Assembly: GCA_963662715.1 (NCBI GenBank)
Contig: OY759724.1
Coordinates: 1,740,001 to 1,772,000 of the forward strand
Reading direction: 5' to 3'
DNA length: 32,000 bases
From: Candidatus Omnitrophota bacterium
GTDB lineage: Bacteria > Omnitrophota > Gorgyraeia > Zapsychrales > JANLHA01
A program made the translations under genes and the position numbers. Under the pieces are notes generated by a model. The model had not been told where the DNA came from, did no database searches, and was given only the letters and a program-made list of their open reading frames with translations. Within the stretch, counting starts at the first letter, position 1, and each line of letters opens with the position of its first letter. Shown piece by piece: positions 13,626 through 14,414 of the stretch.

Positions 13626-13808
13626 ACGTGCCTCCTTGCTGGAAGGTTGTGGTTTTTGGCTTAAAATCATTATACGCCTTCCAGAGGCACGTTTTCATAC
13701 TATCACTACAGCGGGGCGCTCCGCCACCTACGGCTGGCTACGCAGCCCCGCTGAGTTCGTTGCGTTGTACCGAATGAGAAATAAGCGGCGGGTGGCGAGA
13801 AATTTTAC

Positions 13809-13931
13809 ATGAGAGTCGAGGTGGCGCGTGCGGTTAAGAAATTCGTTTCTGGTGACGAAAAACAAGATGAGGATCCCTGCAGAAGCCTCGAAGTAGCTGT
13901 TGCGGTGGGAGAATCATTCGAGAGAAAATGA
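13809..13931 (+). CDS. 40-codon acidic mini-ORF of mini-cassette X1 (MRVEVARAVKKFVSGDEKQDED...)
   Basis: Shares MR..VA.A.KKFV.GDE.QDED...EV pattern with the X2/X3 mini-ORFs, including two synonymous differences. Weak RBS. Coding status uncertain. Confidence 0.35.
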   Translation: MRVEVARAVKKFVSGDEKQDEDPCRSLEVAVAVGESFERK

Positions 13932-13934
13932 ATT

Positions 13935-13987
13935 AAAATTGAGTTCATATTTTGAACATTGTTATTAGGAAGCATGACCCCAATTTT
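13935..13987 (+). other. conserved hairpin of mini-cassette X1
   Basis: AAAATTGAGTTCAT ... ATGACCCCAATTTT, 12 of 14 positions paired. Confidence 0.55.
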
Positions 13988-14016
13988 GGGAATGTGTTTG
14001 ATTCAGCAAACAAAGC

Positions 14017-14094
14017 GTACAACAAATCACTTCAGCGGTCACAGCTCCGGCAGCTTCGCCGCCTGCGCACGACCGCTGAGTTCTCACGTTGTCT
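14017..14094 (+). repeat. attC site (closes mini-cassette X1, 13771-14094)
   Basis: GTACAACAAATCACTTCAGCGGTCACAGC ... CGACCGCTGAGTTCTCACGTTGTCT. Confidence 0.85.
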
Positions 14095-14125
14095 GGCTGG
14101 AGAGATTGGTGGCGGGAAATTTTAC

Positions 14126-14251
14126 ATGAGAAGCGGAGTGGCGTTTGCGTTTAAGAAATTTGTTGTTGGTGACGAAATACAAGATGAGGATTCCAGTCAG
14201 AAATTCGAAGTGTCGTTGGAGGCGGGTGGCATCACAAAAGAGAAGAGATAA
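14126..14251 (+). CDS. 41-codon acidic mini-ORF of mini-cassette X2 (MRSGVAFAFKKFVVGDEIQDED...)
   Basis: Identical to the X3 mini-ORF and a paralogue of the X1 mini-ORF. Confidence 0.35.
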   Translation: MRSGVAFAFKKFVVGDEIQDEDSSQKFEVSLEAGGITKEKR

Positions 14252-14253
14252 AT

Positions 14254-14306
14254 AAAATTGGGTTCATGTTTTGAACATTGTTATTAGGACGCATGATCCC
14301 AATTTT
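14254..14306 (+). other. conserved hairpin of mini-cassette X2
   Basis: AAAATTGGGTTCATG ... CATGATCCCAATTTT, one mismatch. Confidence 0.55.
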
Positions 14307-14336
14307 GAGAATAGATTCGGTTCAGCAAACAGTTCA

Positions 14337-14414
14337 GACAACAAGTCACTACAGCGAGGGCGCTCGGCCACCGTTGGCAGGCCTCGCACTCCCGCTGAGT
14401 TCCTTGCGTTAGAT
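14337..14414 (+). repeat. attC site (closes mini-cassette X2, 14095-14414)
   Basis: GACAACAAGTCACTACAGCGAGGGCGC ... CACTCCCGCTGAGTTCCTTGCGTTAGAT. Confidence 0.85.

Follow-up and report, generated by a model that had tools for sequence, protein, structure and literature searches.

A stretch of 32,000 nucleotides from a Candidatus Omnitrophota genome (GenBank assembly GCA_963662715.1, contig OY759724.1, positions 1,740,001 to 1,772,000 of the forward strand; hereafter the window) carries an array of integron-type cassettes, four of which, designated X0 to X3, are related to one another and contain no gene of normal size. These very probably represent a real family of gene-less cassettes, amplified by duplication and recombination, and the part of them that appears constrained, besides the attC recombination site and its flank, is a 15-nt inverted repeat capable of forming a hairpin. 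The X cassettes, seen so far in one genome, are best read as a lineage-restricted family belonging to an already known class, the gene-less cassettes, and they are probably regulatory or selfish rather than protein-coding. Among candidate functions, a terminator or insulator is ranked first and a micro-protein low. The explanation as a whole, in which a gene-less family spread by duplication and recombination carries a hairpin that would punctuate transcription, is a serious but tentative proposal made from the sequence.

Integron cassettes are recognized here by a G|TT junction in a GTTRRRY-like R' box, an RYYYAAC-like R'' box, and an attC site whose bottom strand folds into a hairpin. A G|TT junction is readable at each X cassette, with GTTGT on the 5' side, and the R'' box reads G(T/C)ACAAC or AGACAAC, one position from the consensus. 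X0 extends from 11076 to 11400, X1 from 13766 to 14089, X2 from 14090 to 14409, and X3 from 15694 to 16011, all on the plus strand and 318 to 325 bp in length; X1 lies immediately after an attC site interrupted by an IS110 element, and X2 stands in tandem with it. An earlier note, made on this DNA from its letters alone, had located the four cassettes correctly but had placed their boundaries 5–6 nt to the right of the canonical junctions, and its description of them as paralogous, attC-bounded cassettes with X1 and X2 in tandem is borne out by alignment, BLAST, and the junctions themselves.

Across the alignment of the four stretches, mean column identity is 80%. By BLAST within the window, over the non-attC part, X2 and X3 are 95.7% identical, X1 and X3 83%, and X1 and X2 78%. 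X0 is the most divergent copy, matching the others at 68% identity from 11182 onward only, and no homology to X1–X3 is detectable by BLAST in its first ∼106 nt. No cassette other than X is present in more than one copy in the window, the remaining repeat families being attC sites and copies of IS110 and IS3 elements, such that the earlier picture of an array otherwise made of unique cassettes is right as to cassettes and requires addition only of these insertion sequences. A fifth member of the family, known from its peptide (P0003), is encoded outside the window in the same 3.36-Mb genome, bringing the family to at least five diverged copies in one genome.

The longest open reading frames (ORFs) contained in the X cassettes have 40 to 56 codons, below the limit of 70 codons used here to call a cassette gene-less, and the family indeed lacks a normal gene, as first proposed. 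Two longer ORFs, of 99 codons (13952–14251) and 146 codons (10901–11341, minus strand), span attC sites into neighboring cassettes, and neither is conserved across the copies. A published definition reserves the term gene-less for cassettes that lack both an annotated gene and any ORF above 210 bp (Blanco et al., 2024; PMC11014356); such cassettes make up 6–49% of cassettes in Vibrio arrays, and most of those tested are sense promoters (PMC11014356). Promoter cassettes are described from the chromosomal integrons of Vibrio and Treponema (Blanco et al., 2024, PMC11014356; Tansirichaiya et al., 2019, PMC6557892). Similar to these, the X cassettes are bounded by attC sites, oriented with the array, and devoid of a normal-size ORF or conserved peptide, and a regulatory role is presumed for gene-less cassettes as it is for X, some of the former being thought to derive from degenerated genes. 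The X cassettes are, however, shorter than the tested Vibrio gene-less set (491–666 bp), and, rather than being AT-rich, they exceed their neighbors in GC content (46–54%, compared with 30–38% in most cassettes of the array). Unlike the gene-less cassettes described, they occur as several diverged copies in one genome, and a conserved 15-nt inverted repeat forms their core, a feature with which promoter cassettes have not been described.

The attC sites separate the copies differently than the cassette bodies do. That of X1 (14017–14089, plus strand) belongs with those of X0 (about 11328–11400) and X3 (about 15940–16011) in a class of 92–98% identity, and that of X2 (about 14336–14409) is of another subtype. 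The bottom strands fold into the expected hairpins, with bulges within the L box, at –15.5 to –21.4 kcal/mol (z –1.7 to –3.3). Between X0 and X1, 59 of 64 attC positions are identical, as are 21 of 24 positions in the block running from TCAGCAAACA to the R'' box. TCAGCAAACA is found in all four copies, and its core, AGCAAAC, also occurs upstream of the attC site of an unrelated cassette near 23980, which identifies the block as an attC-proximal module rather than an X-specific one. That unrelated cassette, which ends at 24063 and encodes an 80-aa Cys-rich protein, has in common with X2 both the attC subtype and ∼20 nt of upstream flank including AGCAAAC (23975–24063 compared with 14320–14409); because this flank is common to both, attC sites in this array appear to move or be homogenized together with a short stretch of 5' flanking DNA.

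The history of the copies is most legible in X3. In this cassette 57 consecutive informative sites, up to 15865, are of X2 type, and the sites from 15872 on, attC included, are of X1 type; on this evidence X3 joins the 5' half of X2 to the 3' half of X1 by a recombination event whose crossover lies inside a hairpin arm. A crossover at the hairpins of the tandem X1 and X2 would yield such a cassette, carrying the X1 attC, either released or made by unequal exchange, and the mosaic suggests that it was then re-inserted elsewhere by an integrase. More generally, the family was very probably amplified inside the array by the two routes through which cassettes are known to multiply, namely integrase-mediated excision and re-insertion after replication, and homologous recombination between copies. 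Replicative resolution is known to yield cassette duplication (PMC3458562), and the route suggested for X3 fits this published one. Duplicated or paralogous cassettes of large chromosomal integrons, such as the Vibrio cholerae superintegron, likewise have copies at several array positions, some of them in tandem, that diverge after duplication (PMC3458562), but the multiplied X cassette is gene-less, and one of its copies is a clear recombinant of two others.

The X cassettes could be selfish or neutral, having no cellular function and persisting through efficient attC excision and re-insertion, possibly aided by the hairpin in single-stranded DNA, with conservation of the hairpin arms reflecting a role in their own recombination or gene conversion. 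The restriction of the family to one genome, the recombination-made mosaics, and the 92–98% identity of the X0, X1, and X3 attC sites despite diverged cassette bodies are all in keeping with this, as is the published account in which the replicative recombination pathway duplicates cassettes as a by-product (PMC3458562); moreover, attC recombines as a folded bottom strand, and here the X hairpin, too, folds best on that strand. Against this stand the readiness with which useless cassettes are lost by excision and the fine scale of conservation within the cassettes (detailed below), which is patchy over ∼15 nt when gene-conversion tracts are longer. No accessory hairpin is known to be required for attC recombination, and we count this as a further point against a selfish element, an explanation we judge unlikely overall.

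The conserved inverted repeat is present in all four X copies, with 15-nt arms separated by a spacer of 22–25 nt, as had been noticed earlier. It occupies 11247–11298 in X0 (arms 11247–11261 and 11284–11298, reading AAAATTGGGGTCTTG and CATGACCCCAATTTT, with a 22-nt spacer), 13935–13987 in X1 (arms 13935–13949 and 13973–13987), 14254–14306 in X2 (arms 14254–14268 and 14292–14306), and 15858–15910 in X3 (arms 15858–15871 and 15897–15910), where the recombination crossover falls in the 5' arm. The hairpins of X0, X2, and X3 rank among the best non-attC inverted repeats of the array; that of X1 is the weakest, with more mismatches, and falls below the list of best repeats. The 3'-arm motif, GCATGAYCCCAATTTTG, has four exact matches in the window, where 0.26 are expected at up to three mismatches, and all of them lie in X cassettes at a constant distance from attC.

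Comparison of the most distant copies shows how local this conservation is. Between X0 and X1, 27 of 30 arm positions are identical (90%), compared with 46 of 97 (47%) in the flanking non-attC DNA (Fisher p = 3.4e-5); identity falls to 11/24 in the loop, 6/15 in the spacer after the hairpin, and 29/58 in the last part of the ORF region, and the loop is 46–54% identical between X0 and the other copies. The 3' arm is better conserved than the 5' arm, at whose start the hexamer TAAAAT is invariant in all four copies, following a purine- and A-rich stretch. Gene-conversion tracts are longer than the ∼15-nt scale of the conserved patches (arms 90%, loop 46%, spacer 40%), so that constraint on the arms is probable, and functional constraint on the hairpin is, from the pattern of substitutions, somewhat favored over its absence; besides attC and its flank, the inverted repeat would be the only constrained part of the cassette. 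Of the outcomes that the earlier note named as counting against its view, two largely apply, in that no homologue turned up beyond this genome and the hairpin shows no covariation, whereas a third, an origin of the similarity wholly in recent duplication and neutral decay, is contradicted by the contrast between arms and loop. Among the candidate functions that the earlier note listed, namely a small RNA, a terminator or insulator, a micro-protein, and a recombination target, terminator or insulator ranks first and micro-protein low.

In X0 the stem comprises 12 perfect pairs followed by a T-T mismatch and thus, contrary to the earlier note, is not perfect throughout; its energy is –19.3 kcal/mol on the plus strand and –19.1 kcal/mol on the minus strand (z about –3), within a range across copies of –9.5 to –19.3 kcal/mol. 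The hairpin is the minimum-energy fold of all four copies on the minus strand and of three on the plus strand, X1 being the copy in which this fold is found only on the minus strand, where two A-C mismatches of the plus strand become G-U pairs. Read on the minus strand, the stem has 14 pairs and is followed by the tail AATTTTATTT(A/T)T, with 9–11 T in 15 nt, while on the plus strand it is followed by AATTTTG, with 5–6 T in 15 nt. The minus strand is thus favored by its T-rich tail, by the G-U changes, and by the folding, and on this basis an antisense-biased terminator or insulator is proposed. Preference for a hairpin function over a simple promoter comes from the conservation of both arms, the 3' arm more so than the TAAAAT-bearing 5' arm.

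In the proposed mechanism, the RNA hairpin would punctuate transcription of the array as a terminator, an insulator, or a stabilizer of RNA 3' ends, and would be more effective on the antisense (minus) strand, where transcripts possibly originate from the IS110 and IS3 genes that the array carries in minus orientation. That gene-less cassettes can have regulatory roles is established, and silencing of upstream cassettes by antisense transcription has been demonstrated (PMC11014356); an antisense terminator would therefore be sensible in an array with minus-strand insertion-sequence genes. Like bidirectional intrinsic (Rho-independent) terminators, the X element combines an A run, a G+C-containing stem, and a T run, giving a hairpin followed by U residues on both strands. 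It differs from them in the weak internal pairing of its long loop, in its central stem mismatch, in a plus-strand tail of only four U followed by G, and in its placement on a mobile cassette instead of at a gene end.

Several observations weigh against this proposal. The loop of 22–25 nt exceeds the 3–10 nt usual in intrinsic terminators, and a scan with the terminator consensus does not call the X hairpin. The central stem mismatch is present in three of the four copies without compensatory change, and the covariation that the earlier note suggested looking for is not seen in the hairpin, whose pairs across the four copies are either invariant or broken. The two events that favor the minus strand by creating G-U pairs have a chance probability of about 0.25, and the comparison draws on only three distinct sequences. 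Conservation of the arms could also fit a protein-binding palindrome or a structure in single-stranded DNA, and a –10 box is another possible identity for the conserved TAAAAT of the 5' arm. Confidence in the mechanism is kept low by the length of the loop, the mismatch within the stem, and the lack of covariation: a terminator or insulator with antisense bias is possible, though rather doubtful, on these grounds. Its most specific form, in which X cassettes would act as mobile, strand-selective insulators that let sense transcription pass, stop antisense transcription from insertion sequences or reverse cassettes, and shield upstream cassettes against antisense silencing, is a speculative extension that we consider unlikely.

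If TAAAAT is read as a –10 box, X becomes a promoter cassette whose sense-strand promoter switches on the next cassette. Precedent is on the side of this alternative, with sense promoter activity found in most of 29 Vibrio gene-less cassettes (PMC11014356), and so are the invariance of the hexamer and its purine- and A-rich upstream context; X2 and X3 present a 9/12 match to a sigma-70 promoter, ATCACA-16-TAAAAT (14231–14258 and 15835–15862), and X0, X2, and X3 each lie directly upstream of a cassette gene with a good ribosome-binding site. X0 and X1, however, have no acceptable –35 box, and the scan calls nothing there; promoter-like matches in the region are not enriched over shuffled sequence (17 compared with 13.2 ± 3.4). 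A –10 box also leaves the better-conserved 3' arm unexplained, and the GC content of X is unlike that of the AT-rich cassettes for which spurious initiation has been invoked. Promoter consensus scans do not predict the promoter activity of cassettes (PMC11014356). On balance, a promoter cassette is improbable enough to rank below the terminator or insulator, without being far-fetched.

Upstream of the hairpin, X1, X2, and X3 each contain a short ORF on the plus strand, whose coding status is doubtful: 40 codons at 13809–13931 in X1, 41 codons at 14126–14251 in X2, and an ORF identical to that of X2 at 15730–15855 in X3. These coordinates agree with those first reported. X0 was said to have lost the ORF, but a TTG-initiated ORF of 32 codons is present in it (11115–11213, plus strand), and an in-frame TGA occupies the position of codon 31 of X1, at which X1 reads on. 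The TTG aligns with the ATG of the mini-ORFs in MAFFT, but BLAST gives no support to that part of the alignment.

Were this a micro-protein gene, an ORF of 40–42 codons would yield a small acidic peptide, and the hairpin would be its terminator. The frame is open in X1, X2, X3, and P0003, the last of which differs in length by a single in-frame residue (it has one extra, at 90% identity to the X2 peptide); the stop codon lies 2–4 nt before the hairpin in X1–X3; and an open frame of such length is expected in only 4–7% of composition-matched shuffles. The pattern of substitutions speaks otherwise. The peptides of X1 and X2 have 20 of 40 residues in common, and the 28 nucleotide differences over 34 gap-free codons fall almost evenly on the three codon positions (10/9/9). 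With pS at 0.37 and pN at 0.25, the in-frame pN/pS of 0.67 lies between the out-of-frame controls (0.47 and 0.85), and the ORF stays open in 27–33% of simulations of neutral mutation at the observed divergence. These values do not sustain the earlier claim that the product is conserved despite many nucleotide changes, among which the synonymous codon differences number three rather than the two then counted. The most conserved block, KKFV.GDE.QDED, is conserved at third codon positions also, indicating conservation at the nucleotide level, and P0003 replaces the supposedly conserved KKFV with KKSA.

Further evidence against a micro-protein comes from X0, with its in-frame stop and unrelated 5' part, and from the absence of a GGAGG-type ribosome-binding site: the closest approach to a Shine-Dalgarno sequence, 9 nt upstream, is GGCGGG or GGCGAG, whereas neighboring cassettes have strong sites of the GGAGG type. 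Searches with a three-peptide profile against 5.8 billion clustered proteins recovered only peptides of the same genome, as did a search of 1.84 billion representative proteins made with no word index, and neither Pfam nor NCBIfam contains a match to the peptides; two low-complexity matches to long proteins in the profile searches are negligible. In all likelihood, selection does not maintain the 40-codon ORF as a protein gene, and a functional micro-protein is accordingly among the least probable accounts of X.

Equally improbable, in our estimation, is a gene for a trans-acting or antisense small RNA, on either strand, that ends at the hairpin. A hairpin with flanking A and T runs does resemble the 3' end of a small RNA, and such RNAs have been proposed for gene-less cassettes (PMC11014356). 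The Rfam search that the earlier note recommended returned no match at gathering thresholds and only noise, with no family, at E ≤ 10, and neither strand has a consistent upstream promoter. The 5' half of the cassettes has ordinary folding energy on both strands (z –1.3 to +0.6), and every copy folds differently. RNAalifold does propose helices there, with 12 "compensated" pairs, which could be taken for a large structured RNA, but these are derived from the same four sequences and depend on the alignment of X0 that lacks BLAST support. Given the ordinary energies and copy-specific folds, overfitting, both to the four sequences and to a doubtful X0 alignment, explains the helices best.

Other known elements were considered and set aside. 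The non-coding ends of IS110, which include the bridge-RNA region, have no shared or complementary stretch longer than 9 nt with X, and the X arms share only TGACCC with the terminal sequence TGACCCTAGTTAA of the IS3-family element in the window, so that X is not an inverted-repeat junction of IS3 type. A type I toxin-antitoxin system of the Fst/RNAII kind, in which convergent RNAs have a terminator in common, is contradicted by a peptide that is hydrophilic and not membrane-like, and by the lack of evident promoters. As in REP- or MITE-like palindromic repeats, X presents a short imperfect palindrome in several copies; however, its palindrome occurs in the window only inside X cassettes, at a fixed distance from attC, without duplicated flanks or target sites, and no copies are found in 5 kb of ordinary chromosome.

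Relatives of X were sought in genome, metagenome, plasmid, phage, and protein collections, and no homologues were found outside this genome. A scan of the genome collection for the hairpin pattern gave two matches, both unrelated: one inside a gene, the other an intergenic hairpin, AAAATTGGGTTCGTACCCC...GAAAATGACCCCAATTTT, in a Terriglobia metagenome-assembled genome (MAG; locus L001, 4134–4181). An identical hairpin is present in a soil metagenome contig (L016, 10–57); it has the same arm pattern, but no attC lies nearby, and a coincidental terminator is the probable reading. Scanning the metagenomes yielded 66 loci, none of them X-like outside the arms and nearly all perfect long palindromes of the form AAAATTGGGGTCAGA...TCTGACCCCAATTTT, mostly with the architecture of bidirectional terminators. 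As candidate homologues of X these were rejected, and they are read as terminator- or REP-like chance matches to a fixed arm pattern. The palindromes occur on many environmental contigs (L003–L068; for example, L004 2244–2288, L009 3473–3525, L021 4281–4335, and L029 5047–5092), with variable inner stems and often with further GACCCCAATTT half-sites beside them, and they look like a repeat family of REP or terminator type, with no relation to X outside the arms. Plasmid and phage collections contain no X match, contigs with a related IS110 carry almost no array, and the metagenome scaffold array that has an SPFH cassette in common with this window (see below) contains no X-like sequence. Those host proteins that could be looked up are all singletons, indicating that the collections hold no close relative of this genome; the absence of homologues in them is thus weak evidence on the distribution of the family.

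Large chromosomal integrons contain many gene-less cassettes, tests of whose roles have just begun, and promoter activity alone has been shown so far. The X family, conserved around a hairpin and multiplied amid minus-strand insertion-sequence genes, is a candidate for a second regulatory class, acting in termination or insulation, and if an insulator function is true, a category of terminator or insulator cassettes would stand beside the promoter cassettes. X3 illustrates clearly how new variants may arise when paralogous cassettes recombine and the product is re-inserted. If the family is merely selfish or neutral, it still marks recent array dynamics, and it warns against taking a short ORF for a gene because it has stayed open in cassette paralogues.

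The first part of the window (1–5100) is ordinary chromosome, with a GC content of ∼51%, and encodes a PD-(D/E)XK nuclease-domain protein and a TPR protein. From ∼5750 to its end, the window is occupied by the array, in which small co-oriented ORFs alternate with attC sites. No integrase gene is present in the 5 kb before the first cassette or elsewhere in the window; within it, the array resembles a cluster of attC sites lacking an integrase, and intI may be located elsewhere in the genome. Between chromosome and array, a 570-bp, AT-rich leader (5177–5750) precedes the first cassette and includes a near-consensus sigma-70 site directed toward the array (TTGACA-18-AATAAT, 5481–5510), GTATTAAGG-like tandem repeats (about 5180–5215), and a direct repeat of roughly 50 nt (about 5250–5300 and 5568–5620).

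Four identical copies of an IS110-family element are inserted within attC sites, all on the minus strand (9270–10530; 12446–13700; 16400–17660; and 19225–19328 plus 21630–22800). Each has the same insertion point in attC and the same orientation, as in the IS1111-attC group, and encodes a 350-aa DEDD transposase whose closest relatives, at 64–67% identity, are from Omnitrophota and Elusimicrobia MAGs. The fourth copy is interrupted in its left end by a rearranged IS3-family element (19329–21629) bounded by inverted repeats (TGACCCTAGTTAA...), with genes orfA (HTH_Tnp_1) and orfB (rve); in this element, orfA is present twice in identical form (20915–21220 and 21283–21588), and a second orfB is partial (19341–19967, compared with 20127–20918). 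Among the other cassettes, one at 6644–8649 has a GC content of 56% and carries two genes, of SPFH/Band-7 type, with 87% DNA identity to metagenome scaffolds (L075 9960–11965; L076 344–2349). On those scaffolds it lies in a different run of small same-strand ORFs, indicating that this cassette has been horizontally shared between arrays.

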